A stretch of DNA of 64,000 bases from Candidatus Melainabacteria bacterium 17Bon1m (GTDB lineage: Bacteria > Cyanobacteriota > Vampirovibrionia > Obscuribacterales > Obscuribacteraceae). The stretch is taken from the NCBI GenBank assembly GCA_032128875.1, contig JAVLKG010000017.1, forward strand, positions 14,890-78,889. Reading direction: 5' to 3'. The position numbers and the translations under genes are program-made. The notes beneath the pieces are model-generated. The model saw only the letters and a list, made by a program, of their open reading frames with translations. It had not been told where the DNA came from and ran no database searches. Below are positions 39,798 to 60,045 of this stretch, in pieces (within the stretch, counting starts at the first letter, position 1; every line of letters begins with the position of its first letter).

Positions 39798-39942
39798 TGG
39801 TGCGCGCTGTTCGCCCATTATGCCGCCTCGGCGCCACCGCAGTGCGTTTGGGTAATCATGTCTGACGTCTAATTCTCTGTTCAGCCGCACAGCGGAGCCG
39901 AGGCGGCTGGGCGTTTTTGCAGCGCGAGCTGCTGAAACACCA
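39798..39942. other. Long imperfect hairpin upstream of the gp88-like gene
   Basis: CGCGCTG/CAGCGCG, CGCCCA/TGGGCG, GCCGCCTCGGC/GCCGAGGCGGC and CCGCaGTGCG/CGCACaGCGG. Confidence 0.85.
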
Positions 39943-39959
39943 GCATGAGGGCTTGAGAA

Positions 39960-40751
39960 ATGACAAAGCGTGACTATGGTTTGGAGCTCACGAATAATAG
40001 CAAAGTCGGCTGGGCATTTAGTCTTCCACGCAGTAAGACATGCATTAATGCCACCACTATCTGCAAGAAACTTTGCTACGGAAATGGCATTCGCTATCAA
40101 TCTGCTGGTCATAAAGCAAAGCGTGAGCGCAACTTTCGCACTATTCAATTTCTTTTAAATGAAGGCGGTCCAGAGTTGCTTTCACAGAATTTGTCTCTAA
40201 TGGTCGATCAGGCTCGTCCTCGCGATTGGCTCTGTGCAAAGATTACTGCTACTGAAACTGTGATTCCCTGGACGCTTCGCATTCATGATATTGGTGATTT
40301 CCATTGCGTGGGCTATGTTGAAGCCTGGTTTCTAACCGTTCAAAAATATCCAGACTGCAAATTTTGGTTTTATACTCGCAGTTTTGCTGAAGTGGAACTA
40401 TTCACCGCTTTGACAAAACTTGCAGCTCTGCCAAACTGTCGGGGCTGGCTTTCAGTCGATTCAGAGAACTTTGAGCAAGCCATTCTTGCAAAGTGCAACA
40501 CTGAATCTTCGATCTGGAATTTTGCCATGCTCCAAGATCCGCAGATGCATGATGAGGTATTGTCGGCGCTTAAGATCGTCGAGACATCGGCCAAAATAAT
40601 CAATTTCCCATATCATCGCGGTGGCAGACATGTTCAGCCTTTGCATGACAGTATTCTTATCAACTGTCCTGCAGTTGTGGGTAGTATGAATTTGCAATCT
40701 AGCAAAGATGTTGCTCGTCCCTGCCAATCATGCAGCATGTGTTTACCGTAG
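39960..40751 (+). CDS. Gp88-like Cys-rich (radical-SAM-like) protein
   Basis: NSKVG..FSLP...TC......C...CY, RIHDIGDF, FWFYTRS, LSVD and C-terminal CP...C..C..C. Confidence 0.75.
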   Translation: MTKRDYGLELTNNSKVGWAFSLPRSKTCINATTICKKLCYGNGIRYQSAGHKAKRERNFRTIQFLLNEGGPELLSQNLSLMVDQARPRDWLCAKITATETVIPWTLRIHDIGDFHCVGYVEAWFLTVQKYPDCKFWFYTRSFAEVELFTALTKLAALPNCRGWLSVDSENFEQAILAKCNTESSIWNFAMLQDPQMHDEVLSALKIVETSAKIINFPYHRGGRHVQPLHDSILINCPAVVGSMNLQSSKDVARPCQSCSMCLP

Positions 40752-41079
40752 TTTTTTGTGTGACGTGAGTTTGCTGATGTGGCTCTGGCTCAGTTGAAAG
40801 CATTTGTTTCGATGGCAATTCTCTATCGGTGAATTCTACTTCTTTGTATTTGTCTAGACCTTGCTCACTGATTCTTGCTTTTCGGTAGACGAGTCGGTTT
40901 TCGCAAGCTAATTTCCCAGGACGTATGGTCAGTCGTTTGCTCAAAGGTCGACCGTGCCTGTTTTTTTTAGCGTTTGATTGTTTCTTTCGCTCGTTGCTTG
41001 TCCCGTCGTTGCTGACTGGTTGGGAGGCGCGCCGTCTGTACGACTTGTGGTGAGTTTGTTCTCGTCGGGCTTCCCCAGG

Positions 41080-41205
41080 GCTGTGTAAAACAAGTGCAAA
41101 TCCTGGCACATCTTGCCTCTTACGCAATGACTTAATCCCTTCGGGACGCTGCGCGGTCATGCACCAGATTCAATCCGTGCCGACCTTGGCGCACTTAAAC
41201 ACAGC
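41080..41205. other. Long imperfect hairpin upstream of ssb
   Basis: GCTGTGT/ACACAGC, AAGTGC/GCACTT, GGCAC/GTGCC, ATGAC/GTCAT and apical TCCC-TTCG-GGA. Confidence 0.7.
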
Positions 41206-41222
41206 ACTGGAGGTGCAGTCTC

Positions 41223-41603
41223 ATGAATCAAATCACTCTCATCGGCAAAGTCGGCGGCGAACCTACAGCAGTTACCTTCACCGATTCGGATAACAAGCTT
41301 GCGAAATTCTCTATCGCTGTGCCTGAGTATTCATCCAAAGTCGACGATCCAGAGCCGCTCTGGATTGATGTTGATGCCTGGGGAAATTTAGCTGAGCGAG
41401 TTCTCGACTATGTCACCAAAGGTCGCGAAATTTGTGTCTCAGGCAAGCTCTCGATTGTCAAATACAACAAGGAAGTAAATGGTGTCACCGTAAAGATGAC
41501 TAAGCCTGTCGTGAAACTCTCGAGCTTTCACCTCTGTGGCAAGAAGCCTCAAAGCGACAGTGCATCTTCAAAACCTACAAAAAGAAAGCGCAATGCTGCG
41601 TGA
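41223..41603 (+). CDS. ssb: Single-stranded DNA-binding protein (no acidic C-terminal tip)
   Basis: MNQITLIGKVG.EP, FSIAV, WIDVDAWG.LAE and KGREICVSGKL. Confidence 0.93.
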   Translation: MNQITLIGKVGGEPTAVTFTDSDNKLAKFSIAVPEYSSKVDDPEPLWIDVDAWGNLAERVLDYVTKGREICVSGKLSIVKYNKEVNGVTVKMTKPVVKLSSFHLCGKKPQSDSASSKPTKRKRNAA

Positions 41604-41607
41604 TCTA

Positions 41608-41636
41608 GAGGGGCGGGACTTTGTCCCGCCCTTTCC
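41608..41636 (+). terminator. Hairpin/terminator after ssb
   Basis: GGGCGGGAC-ttt-GTCCCGCCC followed by T-rich sequence. Confidence 0.7.
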
Positions 41637-41676
41637 TCAATTTTTGTTTGTATTTTCGCCTTTTGGAGTATTTGCA

Positions 41677-41952
41677 ATGAAATCTTCGAAGAATCTACTT
41701 GCTTTGGACGGCATCGAAACGTTGTCCCTCACTCGCGAAGAGTGGCAACTAATAGACGTTGCTATTTGTGGCTATATTGCGCTATGGACGCTCAAGGCTG
41801 TTCCGCCAAAGCTGGACAAACTTCAAGCTGTTCTAAAGGCAGTGAGGGCGCTCTGGTTTGAGGACCGACATGAGCGTCGTAAAACTGGTTTTTGTCGGGT
41901 TTGCGGTCACTATGGCTCTGACTGCACTGGTCGCCAAAGTCCTCGTAAATAG
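41677..41952 (+). CDS. Small hypothetical protein with C-terminal CxxCxH...C
   Basis: GGAG RBS before MKSSK; followed by a GGGGCTGG/CCAGCCCC hairpin. Confidence 0.6.
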   Translation: MKSSKNLLALDGIETLSLTREEWQLIDVAICGYIALWTLKAVPPKLDKLQAVLKAVRALWFEDRHERRKTGFCRVCGHYGSDCTGRQSPRK

Positions 41953-42052
41953 TCAGCGTCGGGGCTGGTCTTCACCAGCCCCTTATTTCTTGTCAGAAAT
42001 GGCGGTTACTCAAATATCTTCTCGGTGGGAAAAATATGATTGAGCTTTTGAG

Positions 42053-42733
42053 GTGTGGGTTATGGATCTAAATACAAAAGTTTCTGGCGATTGGACTGCT
42101 GGTCATTGGAAAGCCGAAAGCGCGAAATTGAAACCTGGTGAAGACGAGCATCTTTGGAAAATTGCATTTACCAGGTATTTTCGCGAACGCTTACAGATAA
42201 GGTATTTCGACCCAATAAAAGCAATAGAAGGTCTCGGAAAGCATGAGGGCAAAGGATTTGCTATCGTCGCCATTCAATGCAGTCTAATTGAATTTTTGGA
42301 GTCGACCTATCAAGGCAAAGCTTACAAGCACATGCCGGTGAAAAAACACTGTGATGGCTGTACGTGCTCATTGCCGACGAAACCAGTTGCCGCGAAAGTA
42401 GTCAATGAATATCACAATAGTTCAGGGATGTTCACCAAATTTCTGAGAAGCAAAATGAGTGATTCTTTTACAACAAAACAGGCTGAGTCTTTCTACAAAG
42501 CTGTGAGGTGTGGGCTTCTTCACGAAGCAAGGACCAAAGGTGATTGGAAAATCAATGTTGGCGATGGCAAAGGACCGCCAGTCAAAATCACAGCTGGAGA
42601 GAAGATTGTTTACTGGAAAAACTTACGCAGAGGAATATCGGAATACATCGATTGGTATGAAGGACAACTTCTCGCTAGTCCAGATCTGCAGAAGAAATTC
42701 AAGGATAAGCTAGACAAGCTCTTTCTTGAATAG
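42053..42733 (+). CDS. HEPN-like protein
   Basis: GFAIVAIQCSLIEFL helix and FY..VRCGLLHE (RxxxxH). Confidence 0.65.
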   Translation: MWVMDLNTKVSGDWTAGHWKAESAKLKPGEDEHLWKIAFTRYFRERLQIRYFDPIKAIEGLGKHEGKGFAIVAIQCSLIEFLESTYQGKAYKHMPVKKHCDGCTCSLPTKPVAAKVVNEYHNSSGMFTKFLRSKMSDSFTTKQAESFYKAVRCGLLHEARTKGDWKINVGDGKGPPVKITAGEKIVYWKNLRRGISEYIDWYEGQLLASPDLQKKFKDKLDKLFLE

Positions 42734-42860
42734 TCAGTGGCTGAACTCATTATGCTTTGTGAAGCCAGACTTTGAGCCGTAATCGCCACTGTATGATTTT
42801 TTAGAACAGTTAAATGCCCCGTTGATAAACCCTGGCACTGCCGGGCTGCTTGCTGCTCTT

Positions 42861-42970
42861 CCATGCCCGGCACTAGAGCCTACACGCCGCCACCCGAGTT
42901 CAAGCCCCAGCCAAAAGTCGCTGCGCGAGGCTTGAACTCGGGACCCTGGGCTGGCGTGTAACAGGCATGG
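42861..42970. other. Long imperfect hairpin
   Basis: CCATGCC/GGCATGG, TACACGCC/GGCGTGTA and the 14-bp stem CCCGAGTTCAAGCC/GGCTTGAACTCGGG. Confidence 0.85.
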
Positions 42971-43054
42971 GCTGCATGGGGTGCGCGCGCATCCCTCGAC
43001 AGACCATGCCTGGAGAAATGAATGCGGAATTAGAGCGGCTGTCCGAGAAATCTA

Positions 43055-43282
43055 CTACCAGACCCAGATGTCTTCCACTTCTTCGAAGTAGTCTTCAGGA
43101 AAACCATGTTCTTCAAGAAATGCTTTGACTTCTTCCCATTGGCAAAATATACCGGCCATCCAGCAGGCATCCCGTCTACCACGTGCTTCTTTCAGAAATT
43201 GGCCTATATCAATCACTCCTCTTTTAAGCCTTATGACTGCGTTTCTGAATTCTAGTTTGATAATTCTTGGACTCTTTTCCAT
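43055..43282 (-). CDS. Small hypothetical protein with acidic C-terminus
   Basis: 75-aa ORF with an AAGGAG RBS. Confidence 0.6.
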   Translation of the reverse strand: MEKSPRIIKLEFRNAVIRLKRGVIDIGQFLKEARGRRDACWMAGIFCQWEEVKAFLEEHGFPEDYFEEVEDIWVW

Positions 43283-43430
43283 TTGGACATCTCCTTGATT
43301 CTTGGACTCGATTGAATTTTAAATATGCAGTCAACCCCCTCCTTCTGAGCTGACTATCTGATTGGACCAGGACGACTTGAGTAGAACAAGGCATCAAGGA
43401 AAAGGTCCGTTTGGTCTCATTGGACGCAAA

Positions 43431-43465
43431 GCAAAAGTCGAAGCATGACTTAAATGCTTCGACTT
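43431..43465 (-). terminator. Intrinsic terminator after the TPR genes
   Basis: AAGTCGAAGCAT/ATGCTTCGACTT inverted repeat with a T-run on the minus strand. Confidence 0.7.
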
Positions 43466-43486
43466 AGTTGGTGAAAAAACTTGGGT

Positions 43487-44113
43487 CTACTGAGATGCGC
43501 GTTTCAATAAATCTCTGATTTGAGGTACGTCAAGTCCGCTGTTTATAACCGTTTCTGCATCGATTTTGGCATTTTGTTTTCTGCCCATTTTGATAAAAGT
43601 TTCCGCTCTAAGAATGTAGCCACCTTGGTGTACTTTTGCTGGAAGCTTTATATCTTCGATCAGCGCCGTGGCAGACCCGATAGCTGTCGGATAGTCGCCG
43701 CCTTTGAGCGCGCTGGAAGCTTTTTCGACTGTCTCTCCGACTGTGCCACTGCCCATAACTTTGTTTCCTGCAATAATGCGGCTTTCGGCGTTATTCAATT
43801 GCTCGTAAATGACGTGCTTGTTATAGCCTTTCTTAATCGCGTTTTCAAAGTCTGTTTTTGCTTTGGCATAATCTTTGGAGTCATAGTAGGCAGACCCTCT
43901 GAGTGCAATATATTCGCCGTTTGATGGGTCGTTGTTGGAGAGTTTTGTGAATTCGGAAATTGCAACGGAAAACTGTCTCGCCTTTATTGCTTCAATGCCT
44001 CTGAAGACAGCGCTGTCTCTTTGGTCTCTGCTTAATCCCTGAGCATGTGCAGTTGACACAAAGCTAGATGAGACAGCTATTGCACACATGGCTGAAATCA
44101 AGACTTTTGACAT
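43487..44113 (-). CDS. Exported TPR protein
   Basis: Signal peptide ending AHA; TPR motifs (RGSAYYDSKDYAKAKTDF). Confidence 0.85.
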   Translation of the reverse strand: MSKVLISAMCAIAVSSSFVSTAHAQGLSRDQRDSAVFRGIEAIKARQFSVAISEFTKLSNNDPSNGEYIALRGSAYYDSKDYAKAKTDFENAIKKGYNKHVIYEQLNNAESRIIAGNKVMGSGTVGETVEKASSALKGGDYPTAIGSATALIEDIKLPAKVHQGGYILRAETFIKMGRKQNAKIDAETVINSGLDVPQIRDLLKRASQ

Positions 44114-44136
44114 TGTTTTATCCCTCGTTTTGAGAA

Positions 44137-44994
44137 TTATCTTGTGAAACTTGCTCTAGGATTTTTCTCCACTACTTTCATTTCTTGCGCTGATAAATCG
44201 AGCGGAATCCAGTCAATCTCAGCTTGCGCCAGCTTCTTCTTGGCGTTTTCTTTTGCGGCTGCCAGCTCGGCATTTGCTTTTCCTTTTTGTCCGAGCCTTG
44301 AATAAATCACTGCTCGACGCTTATATGCGGACATCAGCATTGGATCCCACTGAATTGCCGATGCGAAATCTGCTAGTGCTTCTTCGCTCTTTCCCACCGA
44401 GTCATATGCAGCGCCGCGTAAGTAACGCTCTTCAGGTCCGTCAATCTGGGAGATTGATTTTGTGAGATATTCAATAGCTTTCTTGTCGTCTTTCTTCGCC
44501 TGATACGCAATGGCTATGAGTTTGTAGACTTCAATCTTCGAATCAGGACGATTCTTTCTTATCGCTTCTTCAGAGCGGCTAATAGCATCATCGTAATGCT
44601 TCAAATGAGTCGCAATGATTGCCCCGTAGTCAAACATTGAGCCGTTATCTGGATCAAGTCGCATAGCTTCTTTGATATCCTTTTCCGCTTCTTCGTACTT
44701 TTCAGTCCGCATGTAGGTTTCGGCTCTAAGCTTATAACCGAAGCTGGGTTGAACTTTTATCAACTGATTGGCGATATCCAATGCAGCCGGATAATTTTTC
44801 ACCCTTTCTGCTTCCATATGCTTGTTAAAAAGCTCGCTTGCTATTTTTTCCATTTCCGCATCTTCGGCGGAAGTCTTCGATATCCCGTTCTGTGTTGTAC
44901 TTGAATTTGAGCTGCAAGACACAACGAAAACCGCAACAGAAACAACGACCGCTGTTGCAAGATACTTTTTCTTCAGAAACATGTTTCCGAACAC
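44137..44994 (-). CDS. TPR lipoprotein
   Basis: Lipobox-like VVSC; multiple TPRs. Confidence 0.85.
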   Translation of the reverse strand: MFGNMFLKKKYLATAVVVSVAVFVVSCSSNSSTTQNGISKTSAEDAEMEKIASELFNKHMEAERVKNYPAALDIANQLIKVQPSFGYKLRAETYMRTEKYEEAEKDIKEAMRLDPDNGSMFDYGAIIATHLKHYDDAISRSEEAIRKNRPDSKIEVYKLIAIAYQAKKDDKKAIEYLTKSISQIDGPEERYLRGAAYDSVGKSEEALADFASAIQWDPMLMSAYKRRAVIYSRLGQKGKANAELAAAKENAKKKLAQAEIDWIPLDLSAQEMKVVEKNPRASFTR

Positions 44995-45194
44995 CTCATG
45001 ACGAAAGAGTCATTGTAAAAAGGACGCCGGGAAACCATTGTTCAGACTAACACGGCCGACCTTTCATACTCAAATTCCTTCCGCATCAAATTTGGCATTC
45101 TCGCAAATAATTGTCACTGTGGAATTGTGCATAGCTCAATTGCAAAGTCGTCTTCAGGGCTCACAAACTGCTTGCGATTGTCTACTTTAGGGTC

Positions 45195-45506
45195 TTACGC
45201 GTCTGGAATCAAATGACCGTCAGCGCTCTTTACACCGTTGCCTTCGTCAAACCAAATTTCTGTACCTTCTGGAATATCTGTTTTTTGATATCCAGGCTCA
45301 ATTGAAAAGGAGAACGGACGTTCTGCTGAAGGTGGCGAGGGTAGCTCTAGGTAAGCTTTGCTGCGAATTATCGAGCCATCAGGACGTTTTAACTCGATAA
45401 CGCCGCCATGCTGAAATCCCGCAATTGAGCCTATTGCGTCACTAACAAGTACAAGTCTGTCTTGCAATTGAAAAACCTTTTGTACTTTAAACGCAGCAAT
45501 TACCAT
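45195..45506 (-). CDS. Putative immunity protein
   Basis: 103-aa beta-rich ORF overlapping the stop of the toxin-like gene. Confidence 0.55.
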   Translation of the reverse strand: MVIAAFKVQKVFQLQDRLVLVSDAIGSIAGFQHGGVIELKRPDGSIIRSKAYLELPSPPSAERPFSFSIEPGYQKTDIPEGTEIWFDEGNGVKSADGHLIPDA

Positions 45507-46993
45507 CGCTTTTCACCTATTTCAAACGGTGTATATCCAAATCTCATAGCCTTGTCGATTTCATTCTCTTTCAGAACTTCTAAGACTTGCACTTCATTAT
45601 CCGTCAATCCGAGCATCTTTCGATGTCTGAGCATGAAGTCTTTCACCCTTACTTCACCAATCACTCCGGGCATGTCTTTGGCAGTAAAGAAGCCCAGTTT
45701 GCCTTGAGTTCCGTGTAAGAACTCTTCCAAGGCAGCTATTTTACTAGGGTTTGGCTTGAGTAAAATGTGATTCAGCTCACTGCCGCCAGTGTTCGCTTCT
45801 GCTCCGATGAATTTTAGGTATTCCATTTCTTCGGATCCAGGCGCTGCAAAGACTATTTCACGTCCCTTCGCCTTCATACCGGCCAGCAATTCTTCAGATG
45901 CTGGCTGAAGCTCCAGGTGTTTGAGATGATCCGGCACTTCCGGCATGTTGAGAGCATCATGGGCTTTTTGAATGTCGTCGAAATACCCCTTCGGTACTCC
46001 AGCCAATTCAAGTTCTTGCGCCGAAAGCCCCTTTGCCCGCAAGTATTCGAAGAACATTTGTTTTGTCTGCTGCGCTAACTGAGGCGAAGTATGTGCGCTA
46101 AGTTCAATAGACTGCAGGCTTTCTTGAACAGTTTTTAAAAACGCCTGATCAAGTTTCGTTCCGACTTTACCGGCAATTTTCAAAGCCAATTCGGCTCCTT
46201 CTGTACTGCCTTCTGGATTTCCCATTCCGAACATAAATTTGCCGATCACTTGTCCCTGTTCTCTTTTGGGAAGTGACGAATATTGCTCGCTGCCTTCTTG
46301 GATCATGTTGCCGAGCCGTTCCAACGCATGATTGACAGCGTTTGGATCTTTGCTCATTGCATCAAGCGTACTGCCCACTGCATGAAAAAGGGGATCGTTT
46401 ATTGCATTTGGTTGAGCTAAAAAGTTCGCAACTGTTCCATCGGTCAGTGCCTTCCATCCGAGAGCAGCCGCGGACTTCGTTTCTTCTTTTGCAATGTTTA
46501 AGCCTTCTGCAATTCCGATAGCTTTGTCGATTTCGCCTTGAAAATACGTCTTCCAGCCTTCGGGATCGGTTGCTCTTTTTGTAGCGGCCTGTATAAATGC
46601 CGACAGCTTCTCAGATGGAGTTCTTGTATCTCTTTTTTCCTCATAGTCCATACCGAGAGCAAACATGCCTTTTGTCTTTCCCTGCGGATAATCTATGACT
46701 GTTCCGGTATCTGCCGCAGAGCCGTTCCCAGGCTTGTTCGAGTCGAACAGTTGAAAACGATTCGCTTGAATTTCAGCCACTCTGGCATTGTATTGATCGA
46801 CCGTTTCATTTGCTCCAATGGCAATCATTTCCGGCTCGGATAGAGACCTGTCATTGGCATGCGAAATATCATTTGCAGCTGCATGTACTTCCTGATTTTT
46901 CTGACCACCGATCACTCCAGAGACTGCTGCTGCCTCTGGTGTCTTTTGCGGAGTTTTTTCTATTTGCTTGCTTGATTCGTCAGTGTCTGCCAC
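45500..46993 (-). CDS. Polymorphic-toxin-like protein with C-terminal zincin-like toxin domain
   Basis: ILLKPNPSKIAALEEFLHGTQ...EVRVKDFMLRH resembles C-terminal metallopeptidase toxin tips; preceded by a helical pre-toxin-like region. Confidence 0.65.
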   Translation of the reverse strand: MADTDESSKQIEKTPQKTPEAAAVSGVIGGQKNQEVHAAANDISHANDRSLSEPEMIAIGANETVDQYNARVAEIQANRFQLFDSNKPGNGSAADTGTVIDYPQGKTKGMFALGMDYEEKRDTRTPSEKLSAFIQAATKRATDPEGWKTYFQGEIDKAIGIAEGLNIAKEETKSAAALGWKALTDGTVANFLAQPNAINDPLFHAVGSTLDAMSKDPNAVNHALERLGNMIQEGSEQYSSLPKREQGQVIGKFMFGMGNPEGSTEGAELALKIAGKVGTKLDQAFLKTVQESLQSIELSAHTSPQLAQQTKQMFFEYLRAKGLSAQELELAGVPKGYFDDIQKAHDALNMPEVPDHLKHLELQPASEELLAGMKAKGREIVFAAPGSEEMEYLKFIGAEANTGGSELNHILLKPNPSKIAALEEFLHGTQGKLGFFTAKDMPGVIGEVRVKDFMLRHRKMLGLTDNEVQVLEVLKENEIDKAMRFGYTPFEIGEKRW

Positions 46994-47113
46994 GCTCTTG
47001 GCCTCGAACTAGCAAGTAGTATGTACCCATCTGCGCCTAAAAGACTTGGATACAGCCAGTCGACTTTCGCGCAGTTACATAAGCTACTGAAATTTTGCTT
47101 GCAAACGCTCACT

Positions 47114-47926: not shown

Positions 47927-47946
47927 AGGAGGTTTGCTGTATCTAT

Positions 47947-47984
47947 ACGCCGGCGCTGATTCAGTTCAGCGCCGGCGTTTTTTT
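47947..47984 (+). terminator. Strong intrinsic terminator
   Basis: ACGCCGGCGCTGA/TCAGCGCCGGCGT plus a T-run. Confidence 0.85.
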
Positions 47985-50833: not shown

Positions 50834-51094
50834 AGGGGCTTTCCTCGCAGACTGCTATTAGATATATCAAAAGTGGGACAATCCCACAAGGGGGACCTTC
50901 CCACAGGGCGAAATGTTCCCAGCAGTCGTTGCGCGGAGGTCTGCATTTACCTACAAAATCAGCCGATCCGAAGCGGAACGCTTTGGACTACCATTTGTCG
51001 AAATAGAACAAATCGCGGCGCCCGGACGCTCCTCGAGGTGCGCTAGCACTCCCGGCGCTGAAGTGGAACTGAAGCGCAACGGACGCCACGCAGT

Positions 51095-51190
51095 GCCGTA
51101 AGGCAGGATAAAAGGTGATCCGATTTTGTCTGTATTGCTCATAATTTAACCGTTTTGCTTGCCGGAGCCAGGGAAAATTTTGTCTGTATT
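51095..51190 (-). other. Putative origin of transfer (MOBP-type nic site)
   Basis: Minus strand reads TCACCTTTTATCCTG^CC (core at 51103-51110), matching the RP4/T-border YATCCTG^Y consensus. 14-bp direct repeat ATTTTGTCTGTATT at 51123-51136 and 51177-51190. Confidence 0.6.
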
Positions 51191-51322
51191 TATACGAAAT
51201 TGGTCAAAGCTCTTGTACTTATTGAGTTTATACGTCCGAAGTTTTAAGTAATTTCTGCAAGCGGCCTCAGCCGATGTGTTTGCCTCACGTCAAAGAAACT
51301 GCGCTTTGGGAAAAATAGGTGT

Positions 51323-52954
51323 ATGCCGAACGATCCAAGTGACCAACTGCAGCAGTCTATTGAGCGCCCCGAAAGTGACGCTTTGAATACTCCCGATGTT
51401 CAATCTGTTTGTAATGCTGATGCCAGCCAGATCAGGGAAATTCAACTCCTAAATCCGGATAAGCATGATGGGAGTGCCGGCGGCAAAAAAGACGATAGTT
51501 TGCGCATTGAATCCGACGGCAAGGTGATTGCCGCAAGAGGTTTTGTAGCTTCGACTCCGCAGGACAGCATCAGTCTTTACGAGCTAAGAGATTTAGCAGA
51601 TAAACCCACTGGTGGTTACCCATGGGCCCAAGATTGTTTGAAGAAGTGGGAGGCTGCTCAACAATTGCCTGAAGGAGCAGCGCGAGAGAATGCGCTAGCT
51701 GTCGCACAAGATATGGCAGATCTAATGGCGAGACGTGGTCCTTACGCTCTCAAGGATGGTTTTTCAAAAGGAAGCGCTCATTTACCAGTGGACGGTCAAC
51801 TAGCATATGCAGATGGCCTTAACCATGAAAAGACTCACAAACTCACAGATTCATATTCACTGGCCCTTTGTACAGCAATGGGTCAAGCGCGTGATTTAGG
51901 CGAAGCGCAGCAAATTCAGGCGCAAGTGTCGATTGACTATATGACCAAGAAAGGCGAAGAGGCATTGGCTGCGTTACAGGCAAATGAACTGGATAAAACC
52001 GATTCGCCACTTGTCGCATGGAGCACTGTGGAGCTACCCAAAGAGATAGGGGTGGGCGAGAACGTTGAAATTCGCCTGGACGCCACAAATGCTGTTGAGA
52101 TCGAGCAAGATGCGTTGGCTCAGAAGCCTTTGGAAAAGTACTACCTTGAACATCCGGAAGCTGCTCCCATACAGATTCCCAAAGTGAATGTGGGTGAGGT
52201 GGCAGGTATAGCAGTACAAAGTACTGCTGAGTCAATGGATCAGGCTCTGCGTGCCATCAGGCTTGCAGACAAAGCTACTTATCGAAGTCTTGATTATCCG
52301 GCTTGCCAGGATGCCATGGAAAAGTTTCCCGATCTGAAACACTACGGCGTGAATGAGAAGGTTATCGCCGCGATTATTCTGAATGAGCTTGTTCACCGAG
52401 GCGGCGATGATGATGACGAGGACAATCAGATCCGTAAAAACGGTCATGTTCTTAATTCCGATGGTTCTGAGGACATAAAGGCGTCGATTGGCCCTGCTCA
52501 AATACAAGTCCAAAATATTCACAGGTTGGCAGAGAAGTATCCTCAACTAAGCTTGTACAACTCAGACGCGTCGCGCGCTGCCTTAGAGCCATCTATCGCA
52601 CCTTATTTTGTTGCCGCGTATTTGCAAGAACGCATGGAAGCGTTCTCTGCACACGACAAAGCGAACCCGACAGAGCAGACACCAAAGTGTTTTGAGTCTC
52701 TCCTCTACACATATAACCCGGACGTTGTCTCGAAAGTAAGAAATTCAGCCGCTGGCATTCACGAAAATGAATACAGAGAAATCAGTGCATCCGAAAAGAT
52801 TGAGGAGAAGTTGACAGGGCACAGAGCAGGCTCTCTGACCGGCTGGAAAAGCGAGTCTTATCCGCGCAACCTGATAATTCTTCAAAAATCTGGTGTTGTA
52901 AAAACAATCAAACAGACCATACAGGCAGTCGAAACTCATTTTCGAGGCAAATAG
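51323..52954 (+). CDS. Large protein with C-terminal lysozyme/lytic-transglycosylase-like domain
   Basis: VIAAIILNE...SIGPAQI...VAAYL...TYN pattern; acidic low-complexity N-terminus with no Sec signal. Confidence 0.6.
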   Translation: MPNDPSDQLQQSIERPESDALNTPDVQSVCNADASQIREIQLLNPDKHDGSAGGKKDDSLRIESDGKVIAARGFVASTPQDSISLYELRDLADKPTGGYPWAQDCLKKWEAAQQLPEGAARENALAVAQDMADLMARRGPYALKDGFSKGSAHLPVDGQLAYADGLNHEKTHKLTDSYSLALCTAMGQARDLGEAQQIQAQVSIDYMTKKGEEALAALQANELDKTDSPLVAWSTVELPKEIGVGENVEIRLDATNAVEIEQDALAQKPLEKYYLEHPEAAPIQIPKVNVGEVAGIAVQSTAESMDQALRAIRLADKATYRSLDYPACQDAMEKFPDLKHYGVNEKVIAAIILNELVHRGGDDDDEDNQIRKNGHVLNSDGSEDIKASIGPAQIQVQNIHRLAEKYPQLSLYNSDASRAALEPSIAPYFVAAYLQERMEAFSAHDKANPTEQTPKCFESLLYTYNPDVVSKVRNSAAGIHENEYREISASEKIEEKLTGHRAGSLTGWKSESYPRNLIILQKSGVVKTIKQTIQAVETHFRGK

Positions 52955-53169
52955 CTTTTTCGAGCCCAAATGATCAAAAGAGCGATAGTCAAGCCGACTA
53001 TGCCAGCCGTCAGTCCCCAACTAGTTGCATAACTAACTAGAAGCCTGTCGAGTTGCTGGCTATCGTCGCTCCTGATGTGGTTTACCTTAACCAGCACCCC
53101 CGCCAGCGTAAAGAAAATGAACGGAATGAGGAAAGATGCAATAAGAATCAAAAGTTTTGTCGCAGTCAT
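52936..53169 (-). CDS. Small two-TM membrane protein
   Basis: Two hydrophobic helices in 77 aa. Confidence 0.5.
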   Translation of the reverse strand: MTATKLLILIASFLIPFIFFTLAGVLVKVNHIRSDDSQQLDRLLVSYATSWGLTAGIVGLTIALLIIWARKSYLPRK

Positions 53170-53366
53170 AAATGCAAGACTTCAGTCACATACTTTGAAC
53201 AGTATAAGCGTTCGGCAAAGTCAGAAGAACAACAATCCGAATTCCAGTAGACGCATAGTCAGCTGGCGGTTTTGCCAACCGAGCGGCGAAAATGTAGATT
53301 GGGAGTTATCCGGGAATTCGTTTATGATGGCAACAGATAGGCTTTTTAGCGCCGGAGATTGTCAAA

Positions 53367-53804
53367 ATGCCAAAACTCAGAGGAAGCCGTACTGCCGAAA
53401 TTAGAACCTGGTTGACTGCCGATGACATGTTCAAGCTAAAGCAACTAGCTAGAGCTCGCGGCATGAAAGACACTGATTTTGCACGAGAGGCATTGCTCAC
53501 ATATTTGCTCAATTATGAGGCTGAACAAAGGGACAAACTTGAGACGGTTTATGCGCAACAACTCAAAGCATCAACTGATGAAGTCGTCTCTGTCATCAAA
53601 GCTGGAGTGAATCGAATCTGTGCCTTGCTGGCTAAAAATGCTGTTCAATCTCTAGCGTCCAACAAATTCTTGTCTCGGCTGGAAGATACGGAAGACATGA
53701 TGAAGGAGTGTCAGGGCGCGGCCGCAAAGCAGATACACGAGCAACTGAGCAAAGAAGAGAGCGCGGTAGCGCAGCAGATGTCTGGAAAAATCACCAAGAG
53801 GTAG
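53367..53804 (+). CDS. Relaxosome accessory RHH protein (MobC-like)
   Basis: RTAEIRTWLT......LKQLA..RG....DFAREAL; directly upstream of the relaxase. Confidence 0.75.
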   Translation: MPKLRGSRTAEIRTWLTADDMFKLKQLARARGMKDTDFAREALLTYLLNYEAEQRDKLETVYAQQLKASTDEVVSVIKAGVNRICALLAKNAVQSLASNKFLSRLEDTEDMMKECQGAAAKQIHEQLSKEESAVAQQMSGKITKR

Positions 53805-53810
53805 CCTCTT

Positions 53811-55175
53811 GTGACCAGGTCGGTTGTAAAACACAGCTACATCAAAGCGGCAAACAAAGGTCGTGGTCGAGCAAAGGCGCACATCAACTACATTCGCTTT
53901 CGTCCAGGCAAAGACGAGAACGAAGTCAATCGAAGCTTTTTTACTGATCGAGCTGACGGTTTTACTGCCAACGATGTCCATCGAGCGATCGATCAGCAAG
54001 AAAACCGTGGCGTTTTGATGCACAAGCTGATCCTGTCGCCGGGCGTTAAAGAGGCAAATGTCCAGCAGTTCGTTCGAGAGACTATGACTGAGTTAGGCAG
54101 GTCCAAAGGTTTGGATTTGGAGTGGTATGCAGTTGAGCACCAGAACACGGCGAATCCTCACGCACACGTTGTAGTCATGGCTACCGACAAGAAAGGACGG
54201 CAAGTGCGTTTGCGACGTCCTGATTACACGAAGGTGAAAGAGGTTGGAGACGAATACCTTGAGCGAAATCGCTTACTTGACCGATTTAAGGAGCATGAGC
54301 GTGTAAAAGGAAATGGCAGCAAAGAAGCCACGTCCAGGACATTGAAGGAACGACTAGTTGGGGCGTTAAAAGCTGCGAAAGAAGAGTTCAATAGAAAAAC
54401 TTTGAGAGCTCCGGAGCAGCAGAAAGCTGATCGCCTGGAGCTTCTGTTGGAGAGAGAAAAGGAGTCGCTGGGTGATATGCCTTCCACAGAAGAATTGGCC
54501 GGCAAGCGCTCAAGGCAGGAAGCGCGAGCCAAGAAAGCCAAGGAAATTGCATGGGAGTACTACTCAACTGAAATCAGGCTCAATTTTGCTGGCGCGTCTG
54601 TTGATTATAACTGGAACAGTTCGCTACTTGAATTGAAAAAACTGCAGCAGGAGTATTTGAAAGTTGGATCGTCTGTTCGGCAGCAGTTGACAGAAGATGA
54701 GTACAAAAGGCTAGATACATGGGTAAAGGATGGAAATTACCTGGAGAAACGGCTTTTTGCCCAAGCATTGGGTGTGAAAGATTTATCGCTTGATTTAGGA
54801 GCGGAGCAGAAATTGACCGTGACAAAAGCTTCCAGTCTGTCCGAATTAAATGGCGTCCGGAAAATGGACCGGAAAGGTGAAATCGTTCTGACTCCGGTAG
54901 AGGCAAAAGCTTTGGACTTGTGGATACGAGAGCAAGAAAGAGTAGAACCGATTACGATAAAAGTACCCGGAAAAGATGAAGAGGTTTTGTACGAAAAGTC
55001 TGATTCTCGTGAAGCGTTGGAATTTTTGGCAGACGAATATGAAGCTGGTGAGAAGTGGGCGCAGGGTATGAAGAAGAAAGAGTATTCGAAACTGAGATCT
55101 TGGATAAAAGAGAAACGGGCAGAAGAATTGGAGCAGAAACAGGCATCCTGGGAAGATGAGAAAGACAAAAGCTGA
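53811..55175 (+). CDS. Relaxase (MOBP/VirD2-like)
   Basis: AHINYI (motif I Tyr), HKLILSP (motif II) and EHQNTANPHAHVVV (3H motif). Confidence 0.92.
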   Translation: MTRSVVKHSYIKAANKGRGRAKAHINYIRFRPGKDENEVNRSFFTDRADGFTANDVHRAIDQQENRGVLMHKLILSPGVKEANVQQFVRETMTELGRSKGLDLEWYAVEHQNTANPHAHVVVMATDKKGRQVRLRRPDYTKVKEVGDEYLERNRLLDRFKEHERVKGNGSKEATSRTLKERLVGALKAAKEEFNRKTLRAPEQQKADRLELLLEREKESLGDMPSTEELAGKRSRQEARAKKAKEIAWEYYSTEIRLNFAGASVDYNWNSSLLELKKLQQEYLKVGSSVRQQLTEDEYKRLDTWVKDGNYLEKRLFAQALGVKDLSLDLGAEQKLTVTKASSLSELNGVRKMDRKGEIVLTPVEAKALDLWIREQERVEPITIKVPGKDEEVLYEKSDSREALEFLADEYEAGEKWAQGMKKKEYSKLRSWIKEKRAEELEQKQASWEDEKDKS

Positions 55176-55184
55176 GGCTTTGTT

Positions 55185-56030
55185 ATGACCGATCCCGAAA
55201 AGAGAAGAAAAAAGCCGAAAGTGCAAAAGTCGCTATCCAAAGAGCGGCAGACGCAAGTTTCCAGACCCAAGGAATTGCGCAGTAATTCTTCCGAAAAGTC
55301 GCAGATGCCAAAGGAACAGGCTTCTTTGAAATACGACTCTGGCAAGAAGAGCACTAATGACCGAAAGCTTGAAAACGCGAGTGAAGCCCGGCGGAAGAAT
55401 TCCGGCACAGGAAAGTACAAAACCGTTTCTGAAAAGTCTAAGCAGTTTGAAGGACAAGTTCGCGCCGGAAAAAAGGAAATTCTCAAAGAGCATCTAGAAC
55501 GCAAGGCGAAGCAGCGAGCTGATTTAACAGAGCAGAAAGCCAGCTTGCAGAAAGAAATCAAAGCGATGAATAAAATCGCTGAGGTTAGAGAGACCGTCGA
55601 TACCCAATACACAGCCAAGTACAGTTGCTGGGAATCTGCAATTTCGGTTGGTGCAAAAGGCGCGGCATCGACTGGGCTGAGAAAATTGGATCCGTCAATT
55701 GCGATCAATCTTGCCAGACAGCAGGCGGGTGCTTCGCTAAAAGCAAAACTTGAACCAAAGATTCAAGCGCAATTGGCGAAGATTGTTTCTTTTGCCCGTG
55801 ATCTGAAAATTGCCAATGTCAAAGCAGTGAAGGAGCCGGTTGTAGCGAAGGCTGGATCGATGCCAAAAGACCCAGCCGCAGCGTCGCAAAAGATTGTGAA
55901 CAGCAAACTGCGACAAAAGCTGAAGGACATGAAAGAAAGGGAAATGATGCGTGATCCCAACCGCAATCCGGGCAAGTTTGAAGAAGTCAATCTACCTGCG
56001 CGTGGTGTTGGTGGCGTAGGAGGCATGTAG
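55185..56030 (+). CDS. Highly basic, Lys-rich hypothetical protein in the mob operon
   Basis: 281-aa ORF between the relaxase and the coupling protein with minimal gaps. Confidence 0.65.
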   Translation: MTDPEKRRKKPKVQKSLSKERQTQVSRPKELRSNSSEKSQMPKEQASLKYDSGKKSTNDRKLENASEARRKNSGTGKYKTVSEKSKQFEGQVRAGKKEILKEHLERKAKQRADLTEQKASLQKEIKAMNKIAEVRETVDTQYTAKYSCWESAISVGAKGAASTGLRKLDPSIAINLARQQAGASLKAKLEPKIQAQLAKIVSFARDLKIANVKAVKEPVVAKAGSMPKDPAAASQKIVNSKLRQKLKDMKEREMMRDPNRNPGKFEEVNLPARGVGGVGGM

Positions 56031-57977
56031 GTGGCGAGCAAGTTTTCTGACCGATGCCCAACAGACATTCCGCCGGAAATGCTGGCTCGCGTTTTCATGA
56101 CGTCTTTGAGGCGGCATCAATGGCATGTCACCTACGTTGATGAGATGACACGGATTATTACTGCGGAGCTGAAAGCACCGCAGAACATCATGGGAAAAGT
56201 TTGGCACTACAACTACTCTGCAATCATTCGTTGGCTAGAAGAGGACGGTTTTGCTTACACCGAAATTGAAATCAACGAGCAGTCTTATGACTGGACAGGA
56301 GAAGACTGCCAAAAGAAGTATGCAGAGTTGGTCAAAAGCCTTTTCGAAGATTCACGAGGAATAGTCGAAGCGCTGGACAAGCCAAAGAAGGGTGCACGAT
56401 GGGCTACTCCAAATGAGCTATTTCAGGCTGGCTATATTGTCAAAGAACGCAATCCAAAGCGGTTTTTAGTAACTGGGGATAGCATCAGCTGCCTGTCTTT
56501 GCCGGAGGAAGACACGAATAAACATGTGCTTGTTTGCGGTCCGACCGGCTCGGGCAAAACCACCGGCGTGCATATTCCCAATTTGATTGAGCGCTACAAA
56601 TGCTCGGCGCTCGTGACAGAAGCGACTGGCGGAAAGAGTGCGGGCGACCTTTACACGAAAACAGCGGGCTTCAGAGCACATCATGGGCACAAGATTGTTT
56701 ATTTCAACCCGGACAACCTAAGCTCCGATAGATTCAATCCGCTGGATTCGATCGAGACCTATCGAGATGCTCGGCGGGTTGTCGAGATCATCATGCAGTC
56801 AACAACTTTGCAGACTCACAAGGGTGATCAAAGTTGGGAAATGAGCGAGAGAATGTTGCTTACCGGCTTGCTTTTGCATTCGATTGGATTGCGGGACGAA
56901 GGTAAGGCAAATCTCGGATATATCGCCGACTTGTTTGAGGATGGTCCTGAAGGCATTCAGAAAGTGGTAGCCGACAGCCCAATAGAGGTGGCTAGAAGGG
57001 CGTACAAGAAGTTTTTGAACACCACGACGCCTCCTTACAGGAACCTGGTTGCAAATGGCATTATTGTGCGCCTGGATCTTTGGAACGAACCTCGAATAAG
57101 AGCGCTCACTGAAACGACAGATGTCAATCTGTCAGAGATGGCGGAAAGTTTGTTTACCTGGTATTTGGCAACACCTGCCGATAAGCCTGAGTTGAAACCA
57201 CTGGCCGCCCTGATGTTCAATCTGGCACTGAGCTTTTGCACGACGACCAAGCTGAAACATCCAGTTGCTTTGTTTTTGGATGAATTCACTAACTTCGGCT
57301 ACGTGCGCGGTTTGCCAGATAAGTTGACCATTATTCGACATGACAAAATTCCGATTGTCTTGGGCGTTCAGGACTATGTTCAGCTGGAAAATCTCTACGG
57401 AAAAGAAGCGAAGAAATTTTTGAGCCAGACCGCCGGCAAGATTTTCTTTAAGCCCAATGACTACGAAACAGCGAAGCAGATAAGCACTATGTTGGGCGAC
57501 GTCAACAAGAACGAGGATAAGGTTACTTCTGCCGGACAGCTCCGGGACGTGAAGGAGAAAGAGCCGCTGTTAAGCGTCGATGACCTTTTGAACTTGGGGA
57601 CTATCGATGAAAACAATCAGGAAGCCGAAGCAGGCAAGCCGAACATGATTGTGTTTCTGCCTGCGACGAGACCAGTTCAGGTGAGATCTCTCACGTGGAG
57701 AGACTACCAGACGGAAACAGATGAGCTGCTCTTTCCTTTGCCAAAGCGACGAGTTTTGGAAGTGGATGAAAAGCTGGCTAGAACAATACCGAAAGTAGAT
57801 GCGGCTACGGAAGAAATTTCGAGTGAAGAGCTTGACCGCGATAGAGAGCTACGAGATGAGGACGCTGTGGATGAAGTTGTTTCGACTGATGAATTAGACA
57901 GTGATACTAAGCCAAAGACTCAAGAAAGTGAGTCACCAGGAGCCGAAGACAATGGGTATGGATATCTGACCTGGTAG
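56031..57977 (+). CDS. virD4: Type IV coupling protein (VirD4/TraG family) lacking N-terminal TM helices
   Basis: ARWAT, HVLVCGPTGSGKT (Walker A), FNPL, LFLDEF (Walker B), QDYVQL..LYG and TAKQIS.MLG. Confidence 0.92.
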   Translation: MASKFSDRCPTDIPPEMLARVFMTSLRRHQWHVTYVDEMTRIITAELKAPQNIMGKVWHYNYSAIIRWLEEDGFAYTEIEINEQSYDWTGEDCQKKYAELVKSLFEDSRGIVEALDKPKKGARWATPNELFQAGYIVKERNPKRFLVTGDSISCLSLPEEDTNKHVLVCGPTGSGKTTGVHIPNLIERYKCSALVTEATGGKSAGDLYTKTAGFRAHHGHKIVYFNPDNLSSDRFNPLDSIETYRDARRVVEIIMQSTTLQTHKGDQSWEMSERMLLTGLLLHSIGLRDEGKANLGYIADLFEDGPEGIQKVVADSPIEVARRAYKKFLNTTTPPYRNLVANGIIVRLDLWNEPRIRALTETTDVNLSEMAESLFTWYLATPADKPELKPLAALMFNLALSFCTTTKLKHPVALFLDEFTNFGYVRGLPDKLTIIRHDKIPIVLGVQDYVQLENLYGKEAKKFLSQTAGKIFFKPNDYETAKQISTMLGDVNKNEDKVTSAGQLRDVKEKEPLLSVDDLLNLGTIDENNQEAEAGKPNMIVFLPATRPVQVRSLTWRDYQTETDELLFPLPKRRVLEVDEKLARTIPKVDAATEEISSEELDRDRELRDEDAVDEVVSTDELDSDTKPKTQESESPGAEDNGYGYLTW

Positions 57978-57992
57978 GGCAAGGAGAGCTAA

Positions 57993-58550
57993 ATGGGACC
58001 AACTGCAATGCTCGGATTTGTTTTATCCGTTGTGGCGTTTTTTGTTGCAGGCGGCATATCCAATCAATTTGCCGGTCCATTGTCGATGCCGATTGCTTGT
58101 GCGGCTGCTTATTTCACTTGGAAGTACTTTTGGGATAAAGACGGCAATCAGATGATTGCACTGATGAATCCGCCGGACAAAACGTGGCAAGCAAACTTGC
58201 CGACTGCTTTTGGAATGATCAAAGACGAACTGGACACCTACCGATATGAGAGCCCGCAAGCCGGATTGATTACCTATCGAGTAGATGCAACCGATGATGC
58301 TCGGGGGATCATCAAAGCTGAATCAAATTTTTCCGAGAAACTGGGCGGTGCAGGAAATTACGTTGACGCGAAGCGGAATATTGTTTTGCAGATACAGCTC
58401 ATTCCTGAGGGTTCAGCTACTCGAGCGGTCTACAAGTATCAAGTATTTTCGCCTAAAGGCACTGGCACTGTGCGTGAAGTGCTCAAGGACACTCAGACAA
58501 AGTTAGATGATGCAATTGCGAAACTTCCTTTGCAACCAGGAAATCCGTGA
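57993..58550 (+). CDS. Two-TM membrane protein with soluble C-terminal domain
   Basis: Two N-terminal hydrophobic helices; AGGAG RBS. Confidence 0.75.
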   Translation: MGPTAMLGFVLSVVAFFVAGGISNQFAGPLSMPIACAAAYFTWKYFWDKDGNQMIALMNPPDKTWQANLPTAFGMIKDELDTYRYESPQAGLITYRVDATDDARGIIKAESNFSEKLGGAGNYVDAKRNIVLQIQLIPEGSATRAVYKYQVFSPKGTGTVREVLKDTQTKLDDAIAKLPLQPGNP

Positions 58551-58571
58551 ATTCTAAATGGAGAGAAAAAG

Positions 58572-59105
58572 ATGACAAAGAAATTGGCGTTGATGCTTTC
58601 TTTAACTACGGCTCTAACTATCTGTCTAGAGCCTTCTTTTGCGCAGGAAAAAGGGACGCCAGCATACGTCGAAAAAGTAAAAGTCACTCTTGCTGCCATT
58701 GCTTCTGAAGAAGACAAAGCTCCGAGCAAAAACTGGCTTCCGACAGGCAAAAGGGATTTGAAAACGGCATATCGAGCGACAGCGAATATGGAAAAAGCAA
58801 ATTTTGCCCTAGACCTTCAGGACTTCGTAAACAACGCCGGCGAAAAGCTCGACAATCTAGCCGGCACTTATGTGCCTTATTCGAAAAGAAAGTCGTTTTC
58901 AGAGTCTTGGTGGTTGAGACACAGCAGTGTTTACACAAAGCTTTCTGCCCCAGAGCGCGAAAAATGGGTTGACGAGGCAATTCTCGATGCTACCCAATTG
59001 AGATGGCAAGGTCTCAAGCGTTTGAATGCAAGTTATTCTGCATCGCACGTTATGGCTCATGATGGGCTCATGGTACAGCTTTATAAAAAGCAAGATAAAT
59101 ACTAG
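58572..59105 (+). CDS. Hypothetical exported protein
   Basis: Signal peptide ending SFA. Confidence 0.75.
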   Translation: MTKKLALMLSLTTALTICLEPSFAQEKGTPAYVEKVKVTLAAIASEEDKAPSKNWLPTGKRDLKTAYRATANMEKANFALDLQDFVNNAGEKLDNLAGTYVPYSKRKSFSESWWLRHSSVYTKLSAPEREKWVDEAILDATQLRWQGLKRLNASYSASHVMAHDGLMVQLYKKQDKY

Positions 59106-59151
59106 ATTTTAGGATACTGATAGAGCATTTTTGTCGACATGATAATTGACC

Positions 59152-59829
59152 ATGGCAGAAAAGAAACCAGCTATCCTTGATTGGGAAGAATTTCAATCAG
59201 TCAAGAATAATCAGCAAGGACTAATGCTGAAGGCAAAGGCACTTGCGCCGTGGCTCATTGACATAGCATCGGCGAATGCAGATGCGCTTATCACCATTGT
59301 ATTGAAGCCAAAATTCAAGGACCGAAAAGTGGAAAAGAATTCACATCTTTTGGTTCAAATCGACTTTATTCTCATTTGCATACATTGGTGCGATAGGGTC
59401 TTGTCATGGCATTTTGAGGAGGATCTCAGATTCGTGTTTTTTGACGCACTCATCGTGGAAATTGAACACATGCTGTGCAAAAAAGTATGGGATAAGAAAG
59501 AGAAAGTGGCTGTGCGTCGTGATTTTGAACGGATGTTGAATTCATTTCAACAAGAGTATGCCAATTACAACATGGTTTCGGAACCGCTGCGTGATTACAT
59601 TCTTTGGAGATTTGGTTTTAGAGTTTTGGAACATTTACGAATGAAAGAAGACGTTAATTGTGCAATCCATGTTCGAGGACCTGTACTGTTCGCGTTCGAA
59701 CAGCTCAATTTCGCTGGACTTTTGGGTCTGCAGAAGCCTGCTGAAACTTGCATCAATTGTTCAGCAAGTTTGGTTCAGTCTGCTAAATTCTGCAATCAGT
59801 GCGGACAAAAAGTAACTGCAGCCAATTGA
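59152..59829 (+). CDS. Hypothetical protein with C-terminal zinc ribbon
   Basis: CINC......AKFCNQCG. Confidence 0.75.
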   Translation: MAEKKPAILDWEEFQSVKNNQQGLMLKAKALAPWLIDIASANADALITIVLKPKFKDRKVEKNSHLLVQIDFILICIHWCDRVLSWHFEEDLRFVFFDALIVEIEHMLCKKVWDKKEKVAVRRDFERMLNSFQQEYANYNMVSEPLRDYILWRFGFRVLEHLRMKEDVNCAIHVRGPVLFAFEQLNFAGLLGLQKPAETCINCSASLVQSAKFCNQCGQKVTAAN

Positions 59830-59918
59830 AACGCTCGATCTACTGAGCTAATTACTGCTTTCAATCTACTGCCTTCCTGCTTCGGTCTTCTGTTTTCTTG
59901 GTTGTGAGGTGCAGCTCA

Positions 59919-60045
59919 CCGTCTTTTCTCCTAGTCTCGCGTCACGGCGCCACTGTCCGTCAAGCTGCGCCTCGCTCCTTTCTTTGTTGTCTTATCGTTG
60001 AGCTTGACCGCCAGAGCCATGACGCACTTGCCCTTCTGTTGACGG
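59919..60045. other. Long imperfect hairpin upstream of the sigma factor gene
   Basis: CCGTC/GACGG, GCGTCAcGGC/GCCaTGACGC, CTG/CAG and GTCAAGCT/AGCTTGAC. Confidence 0.75.

Follow-up and report, generated by a model that had tools for sequence, protein, structure and literature searches.

The DNA considered here is a 64,000-nucleotide stretch (the window), corresponding to bases 14890-78889 of the 78.9-kb contig C17 of Candidatus Melainabacteria bacterium 17Bon1m, a member of the Obscuribacterales; its G+C content is 45.7%, and that of the 7.55-Mb genome is about 50%. The window is DNA of a conjugative element, whose polarity is set by a transfer module at 53367-57977. On the plus strand a ThiF-like gene, a DAC-domain gene, a GP88-like gene, the single-strand-binding protein gene ssb and two genes of unknown function are followed by a block of minus-strand genes and then by the transfer module. 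Our subject is four hairpins in front of genes of this element, termed h39, h41, h42 and h59. They fall into three families, and for two of these, R1 (h39 and h59) and R2 (h42), the comparative evidence points to probable promoters that would be active on single-stranded DNA (ssDNA). The features are listed below (RBS, ribosome-binding site; ORF, open reading frame; ECF, extracytoplasmic function).

39815-39909, minus strand (probable folding strand): h39, first copy of R1, 88.6 bits; its outer stem reaches 39798-39942
39833-39836: GCCA internal loop of h39
39817-39822, minus strand: -10-like CATAAT of h39, with ATAA unpaired
39910-39959, plus strand: leader of h39, which contains the RBS; from the GCCA loop to the ATG at 39960 there are 127 nt, a spacing typical of R1
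41080-41205, no strand assigned: h41, directly 5' of ssb (conserved element 41080-41222)
42868-42968, minus strand: h42, the R2 hairpin, 128.8 bits; outer stem 42861-42867 with 42964-42970
42877-42882, minus strand: TAGGCT of h42, at the junction
42898-42903, minus strand: TTGAAC of h42, near the loop
59931-60028, minus strand (probable folding strand): h59, second copy of R1, 83.8 bits
59949-59952: GCCA loop of h59
59958-59963, minus strand: TTGACG of h59
59933-59938, minus strand: weak -10-like GAGACT of h59
36720-39704, plus strand: ThiF-like gene and DAC-domain gene (DACND and DACNH sensor domains), just 5' of h39
39960-40751, plus strand: GP88-like gene (PF17338)
41223-41603, plus strand: ssb (PF00436)
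43018-43128, plus strand: 36-codon ORF running into a convergent gene; relatives have a 155-209-aa RadC-like JAB gene there
53367-53804, plus strand: NikA-like accessory gene
53811-55175, plus strand: MobA/VirD2-type relaxase
Between relaxase and coupling protein, plus strand: gene of unknown function
56031-57977, plus strand: type IV coupling protein
60076-60594, plus strand: ECF-type sigma factor gene, its ATG 127 nt past the GCCA loop of h59

Presence and folding of the four hairpins

A first-pass annotation, made from the letters of the window, had reported the four hairpins, and all of them are found at the positions it gave, each with an RBS and an ATG behind it. Its details also hold: the asymmetric loop GGC-GCCA-CC opposite GG-A-GCC (GCCA and A unpaired) is present in both h39 and h59, GCCAC-N6-TCAAGC with a paired GCTTGA is common to h42 and h59, TAGGCT stands on the minus strand at the stem opening of h42, CATAAT lies in a bulge of h39, and h41 is devoid of the GCCA loop. 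Its grouping of all four into one family fails: the covariance model of h39 and h59 misses both h42 and h41 at E<=10, and three families have to be distinguished. A single model for all four was rejected on an alignment (A2) that showed the pairing register of h42 to be shifted by 3, because of which h42 was left out of the R1 model; this model then did not find it. As seen from its fold and the same alignment, the GCCA letters of h42 are paired, and extra bases (ACCC and two single bases) are located on the other arm.

Folding as ssDNA, which the annotation had proposed as a check, places h39 and h42 far above shuffled sequences on either strand: h39 reaches -38.9 and -40.2 kcal/mol on the plus and minus strands (z -3.6 and -3.8) and h42 -36.4 and -38.7 kcal/mol (z -7.2 and -7.1), with 0 of 200 shuffles as good in either case, and both are among the 40 strongest fold windows per strand in a contig-wide scan. 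By energy alone h41 (z -2.25 and -1.80; equalled by 6 and 10 of 200 shuffles) and h59 (z -1.89 and -2.29; equalled by 8 and 4) are weak, and neither is among those 40. None of the four is followed by a T run, which rules out intrinsic terminators. A dispersed repeat of the repetitive extragenic palindrome or miniature inverted-repeat transposable element type is likewise ruled out: blastn finds no further copy of any of the hairpins in the 7.55-Mb genome, and the only matches of the R1 model there are h39 and h59, both on contig C17. Rfam 15 gives no match to the window at the gathering score and none to 39700-43100 at E<=1 (h59 being covered at the gathering score only).

The R1 family: distribution and covariation

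A GCCA-loop hairpin lies 5' of the GP88 homologue in seven of the ten loci whose upstream DNA was inspected, the other three being L003, L004 and L005. The R1 covariance model, built from seven copies, recovers 145 matches, spread over 66 of the order's 107 genomes; a single genome has as many as 11, and two or three copies often stand in tandem on one strand; two weak reverse-strand self-matches (26.7 bits) are not counted. Within a class-wide sample, R1 is present in 19 of 30 genomes of a single family (f1) and in none of 120 genomes of ten other families. The copy set used below leaves out six of the 145 matches (G098, G105 and four in G106).

The stems of R1 covary. Pairing holds in 90.0% of cells over 103 distinct copies, as against 72.0% in shuffles, and 18 of the 22 stem pairs show changes on both sides. 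Compensatory cells number 335 where 101 are expected, and the covariation score is 0.397 versus 0.110, a value reached by 0 of 500 shuffles, with slid controls giving at most 0.100; partners slid by 1-3 columns pair in 32-40% of cells. The covariance modelling and search of related genomes suggested earlier thus find covariation beyond shuffles in R1 and, as described below, in R2. The loop GGC-GCCA-CC / GG-A-GCC, together with its flanking pairs, is invariant in 102 of 102 copies.

Promoter-like boxes, folding strand and gene linkage of R1

The complement of the left flank and arm of R1 reads CGCTTGAYG-CGCGG-TGGC-GCC-N-CCCCCG-TAnAnT. Among 123 distinct copies, the terminal hexamer on this strand has T at position 1 in 103, A at position 2 in 122, a free position 3, A at position 4 in 84, A (61) or C (60) at position 5, and T at position 6 in all 123. 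Read at the level of sequence, this conservation is the pattern of a sigma70 -10 box, provided that the host shares the assumed consensus, which is quoted in PMC11541004. The first base of the hexamer belongs to the last stem pair and its remaining bases are unpaired, while TTGAYG lies within the stem near the apical loop. The spacer between the TTG-type -35 and the hexamer is 19 nt in 105 of the 123 copies; since TGGC faces a single T, the arms differ in length (19 nt on the non-template arm versus 16 nt on the template arm), and the folded form would thus have a near-optimal box distance. A gene-sense pair of the form TTGAnn-N16-19-TAnnnT is found in 1 of the 123. As duplex, the boxes point away from the gene; as hairpin, travel from the loop to the base leads into the downstream gene.

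Two asymmetries bear on the strand that folds. Mismatches that become G:T wobbles only on the complement (A:C or C:A in gene sense) number 128, those of the reverse kind (G:T or T:G) 22, and in 121 of 123 copies the complement folds, as DNA, to the lower energy; both argue against a structure in gene-sense RNA.

An RBS and ORF follow 115 of the 123 copies, with the start codon 43-50 nt past the model end in 96 of these 115. The genes concerned are GP88-like (57), ECF-sigma-like (23), RadC-like JAB (15), ribbon-helix-helix (RHH; 11) and DUF2958 (3), plus small ones of unknown function. Hence the copy in front of the sigma factor, which the first-pass annotation had considered unexpected, belongs to the second commonest arrangement (23 of 115). 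In 44 of the 123 leaders a mini-hairpin of GCGAAA(N)GC type precedes the RBS.

R1 is also strictly oriented with regard to transfer: counted among the 150 relaxase matches listed (of 208), so that the pairs are a subset, 57 of the 58 R1 matches sharing a contig with a relaxase (44 contigs) are on its strand. Thirty-seven of these 57 are within 15 kb upstream of the relaxase, three further upstream and 17 downstream.

The R2 family

The R2 model was built from three close copies and finds the family in 45 of the 107 genomes of the order. Over 26 distinct copies 91.2% of cells are paired, compared with 66.6% in shuffles, 21 of the 26 pairs are compensatory, and the covariation score is 0.558 versus 0.127. 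On the complementary strand TAGGCT is located at the junction in 25 of 26 copies and T(T/G)GAnn near the loop in 25 of 26; the spacer of 14-15 nt between them faces about 21 nt on the other arm, and a short outer stem closes beyond the hexamer, leaving a bubble. All 32 R2 matches with a relaxase on their contig are on the relaxase strand (relaxases among those listed; G040 excluded). In G040, contigs C2 and C3 contain 13 R2-like matches with identical scores on both chromosomal strands; they look like a dispersed repeat resembling the R2 hairpin and were set aside as different before the strand count.

An ORF starts 38-88 nt after 19 of the 26 copies, and 18 of these 19 ORFs are of one family, of which all four representatives tested are RadC-like JAB proteins. 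The copy in the window is orphaned, because the RadC-like position holds only the 36-codon ORF that runs into the convergent gene. As regards this neighbourhood, the minus-strand block at 43.05-51.1 kb appears to have replaced the RadC-like JAB gene that relatives carry in the place of the ORF at 43018-43128.

A sub-type of R2-like hairpins is found 1.2-2.7 kb before relaxase genes, with 11 of 12 copies devoid of an RBS-ATG within the 140 nt scanned. At loci L204-L214 such hairpins, 1.2-2.2 kb 5' of relaxase genes, are followed by conserved words of the GGTATCAAAGAG type, and are candidate elements close to the origin of transfer (oriT). The genome of the window itself encodes a second relaxase relative (G000 contig C27, 7766-10201), preceded on its own strand, at a distance of 1.7 kb, by a weak R2-like match (E 0.0065).

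The element in front of ssb

Conservation in the 150 nt before ssb is far higher than elsewhere in this intergenic region. The h41 element is found in 21 of the 107 genomes, in most cases with an R1 copy about 1.3 kb before it; its 26-nt 3' part is 96-100% identical in many genomes, its last small stem presents the RBS, and 10 of the 31 pairs in its consensus fold show compensatory changes. A TTG...TAnnnT box pair was found in 0 of 22 copies on either strand, and h41 was accordingly rejected as an ssDNA promoter of sigma70 type. The strand tests are ambiguous (23 wobble pairs in gene sense versus 11 in the reverse). To judge from its conservation and fold, h41 is a third, separate structured element.

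A model for expression from the entering strand

Taken together, these comparisons lead us to propose that h39, h59 and h42 are lineage-specific ssDNA promoters of conjugative elements in one family of the Obscuribacterales (Melainabacteria), a reading that we consider probable, though well short of certain. The suggestion of ssDNA promoters in the first-pass annotation is thus strongly supported by comparative evidence for R1 and R2 (covariation, boxes aimed into genes, a fixed distance to the ATG and co-orientation with the relaxase), and is not supported for h41, in which no copy has the box pair.

From the structure, conservation, box pattern, geometry, gene linkage and relaxase co-orientation we infer which strand is transferred, where polymerase would bind and start, and how the promoter would be switched off. 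The transferred strand, upon entering the recipient, would fold into an imperfect hairpin of about 100 nt; by the usual polarity, this would be the minus strand, which is the template for the relaxase gene as well as for the genes served by the hairpins. The relaxase typically lies in the last-entering region next to oriT (PMC11541004), and, combined with the co-orientation, this would make the transferred strand the template of the hairpin genes. The arm adjoining the upstream gene would act as the non-template strand, with the TTGAYG -35 in duplex near the apical loop and the TAnAnT -10 at the stem opening, its first one or two bases paired and the rest already single-stranded. A host RNA polymerase of the sigma70 type may bind there and read out of the hairpin base along the template, starting some 10 nt past the stem, at the point where the leader becomes rich in purines, to give an mRNA leader of 34-41 nt. 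The genes served would be the GP88-like, ECF-sigma-like, RadC-like and small RHH genes. In the duplex form the spacer would be 19 bp and the boxes would be aimed away from the gene, such that the promoter would be off once the complementary strand is made.

Several observations weigh against this proposal. The invariance of GGC-GCCA-CC / GG-A-GCC exceeds what spacer length alone explains. Two pairs next to this loop supply 34 + 44 = 78 of the 128 wobble cells, and related R1 copies are not independent events; this relatedness and the fitting of the alignment to the model also inflate the R1 covariation figures somewhat, and the -10 columns are part of the search model, which slightly favours them. 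The h39 clade is devoid of a TTG-type -35, and the -10 of that clade and of h59 begins with C or G. In R2 the non-template arm has a spacer of 15 nt in 22 of 25 copies and of 14 nt in the other 3, short for sigma70, and the wobble asymmetry is absent (16 versus 22). For 17 of the 58 R1 matches, including h59, a position downstream of the relaxase would imply late entry. The promoter consensus is an assumption for these uncultured bacteria. Reading of 50900-51400 and 52900-53420 gave no clear oriT or nic site, and it is by the usual rule that the minus strand is taken as the transferred one. In four RNA-labelled runs the stretch is represented by 4.5-55-kb contigs that extend across every gene boundary and are uninformative on starts, strand and transcription.

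With regard to oriT, a 12-nt MOBQ-type nic motif matches the window at chance level, 3 times where 3.67 are expected, with one of the matches inside h41. Two direct copies of the 14-nt word ATTTTGTCTGTATT, about 54 nt apart (51124-51192), occupy the divergent gap before a 543-aa ORF that opens the gene block on the relaxase side; the pair may be a binding site or belong to oriT.

An extension of this proposal, which we put forward as a speculation with the odds against it, is that these are strandedness-gated promoters combining arm-length asymmetry, recognition of TGGC/T and a two-step sigma programme. The boxes, out of register in the duplex on this view (19 nt in R1, 15 nt in R2), would be brought into line only by formation of the unequal internal loops, and the invariant TGGC/T loop might in addition be recognised by the host polymerase or by a factor entering with the DNA. 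As an ECF-type sigma factor of the plasmid is a regular target of R1, the entering strand would launch two steps: the host sigma would read the hairpins, and the plasmid sigma would then read later promoters, perhaps including the box-less h41 before ssb.

Alternative explanations

The alternative that survives best, although we regard it as unlikely, is that the hairpins are priming sites for complementary-strand synthesis of the single-strand initiation (ssi) or single-strand origin (sso) type, at which RNA polymerase or a primase would lay down a primer, mRNA being absent or secondary. Masai and Arai in 1997, going by their title, reportedly dealt with primer RNA synthesis at Frpo. The absence of a real gene behind h42 fits such a role, as does the lack of an RBS-ATG after 11 of the 12 R2-like copies before relaxase genes; Frpo is also reported to serve primer RNA synthesis in PMC12672017. 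A pure priming site, however, needs neither an RBS nor an ORF, and both occur at a narrow distance after 115 of 123 R1 and 19 of 26 R2 copies.

Structured 5' untranslated regions (UTRs) in gene-sense RNA, controlling translation or stability of transcripts from an ordinary promoter further upstream, are less probable still. The first-pass annotation had offered 5' RNAs as its alternative, and the location of the hairpins directly before RBS and ATG is as expected of them; further, the mini-hairpin of 44 of 123 leaders would have a GNRA-type loop if RNA, and the gene-sense wobbles of h41 are slightly in excess (23 versus 11). R1 fits this poorly: changes compatible with G:U are rare (22), as against the 128 that would be A:C mismatches in RNA, and the T/A/T of the -10 hexamer is kept on the other strand at the stem opening. 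Nor is there an Rfam match even at E<=1 (39700-43100), and the strict co-orientation with the relaxase is not demanded of a UTR element.

Slightly further down we place double-stranded operators or recombination sites, a reading we deem improbable, in which a plasmid protein (RHH, sigma or relaxosome) would bind the GGC-GCCA-CC / GG-A-GCC core, the inverted repeat being a dimeric binding site or cruciform. The core is indeed invariant in 102 of 102 copies and shows no covariation, and RHH and sigma genes are among those behind the hairpins. Against this, stems of more than 20 pairs covary well past a protein footprint, a 4-versus-1 loop asymmetry makes no sense for a duplex, and the conserved hexamer lies outside the repeat. 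An ordinary leftward duplex promoter on the minus strand with an incidental hairpin is scarcely credible: TTGAYG-N19-TAnAnT can be read as a (poor) promoter in 105 of 123 copies, but it would have a 19-bp spacer, drive antisense transcription into the upstream gene from its 3' end (in the window, the DAC gene and a zinc-ribbon gene) and leave the covarying stem and fixed ATG distance unexplained.

Other features of the element

The ThiF-like and DAC-domain pair at 36720-39704 is possible conflict or anti-defence cargo. In a sister genome, the GP88-like gene of a near-identical plasmid, assembled as one 114-kb contig (L007, L010), is split, with residues 1-114 and 107-263 encoded about 11.7 kb apart, implying that something was inserted. 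A perfect 13-bp GC-rich hairpin at 47947-47978 lies between convergent genes, preceded by an A run and followed on the plus strand by a T run; it is a textbook two-way terminator and the third-strongest fold on the contig.

Comparison with known systems

In F and IncI plasmids, hairpins of the entering strand that rebuild -35 and -10 boxes drive early leading-region genes; the enterobacterial Frpo and ssi elements and two further classes (pESBL, F) were verified by reporter and rapid amplification of cDNA ends (RACE), and, in the papers cited here, demonstration of ssDNA promoters is confined to these enterobacterial plasmids, with those elsewhere proposed from folds and box matches (PMC11541004, PMC9849209, PMC12672017). 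R1 and R2, which are sequence-unrelated to Frpo, would be a known kind of promoter in a group where none is described. A blastn search in distant mode with 39790-39960 against 72,556 plasmid records gave no match, Frpo itself not being aligned, and the literature search found no paper on such elements in Melainabacteria, although the supplementary Frpo-like candidates of PMC11541004, which lay outside it, might include relatives.

Two sequence-unrelated families from a distant phylum offer natural variants, upwards of 100 for each or close to that number, from which covariation, a logo of the boxes and a test of the folding strand are obtained by comparison, and the spacer asymmetry suggests a rule, open to test, by which such promoters would be turned off. 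The models may be used to find leading regions and early genes in uncultured Melainabacteria, and they furnish a list of early genes (GP88-like, RadC-like, ECF sigma and RHH) with possible roles in establishment.

The base of R1 resembles fork-junction and bubble promoter templates, laboratory constructs with a duplex -35 and spacer and a single-stranded non-template -10; in R2 and h39 a further short duplex follows the -10 and leaves a bubble, and these hairpins would be a natural case of such templates. In the ssoA-type single-strand origins of rolling-circle plasmids the folded strand likewise offers promoter-like boxes to the host RNA polymerase. Such origins give rise to a short primer and, unlike R1 and R2, are not known to be linked to an RBS and ORF.

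The closest parallels are Frpo1 and Frpo2 of F and ssi1-3 of ColIb-P9 (class 1 ssDNA promoters), in which, as in the model for R1 and R2, an entering-strand hairpin rebuilds boxes aimed at early genes; in the accounts of PMC9849209, PMC11541004 and PMC12672017 these elements are on the upstream side of the relaxase and co-oriented with the transfer genes, as most R1 and R2 matches are, and, as proposed for R1 and R2, are expected to be silent as duplex. The early genes of the Frpo and ssi systems, as given there, include ssb, which in the window is instead preceded by the different element h41. The same accounts give regulatory regions of 50-350 bp and folding windows of 300 nt for Frpo-type elements, as against hairpins of about 100 nt in R1 and R2. 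Unlike Frpo and ssi, R1 has its -10 at the open stem fork and an invariant 4-versus-1 internal loop, and its hosts are Melainabacteria. The two further classes from pESBL and F are likewise sequence-unrelated leading-region hairpins, each before its own genes and found by prediction of folds and boxes. Those two classes were confirmed by 5' RACE in transconjugants, whereas R1 and R2 are known from comparison alone; conversely, and in contrast to them, R1 has covariation available over more than 100 copies.

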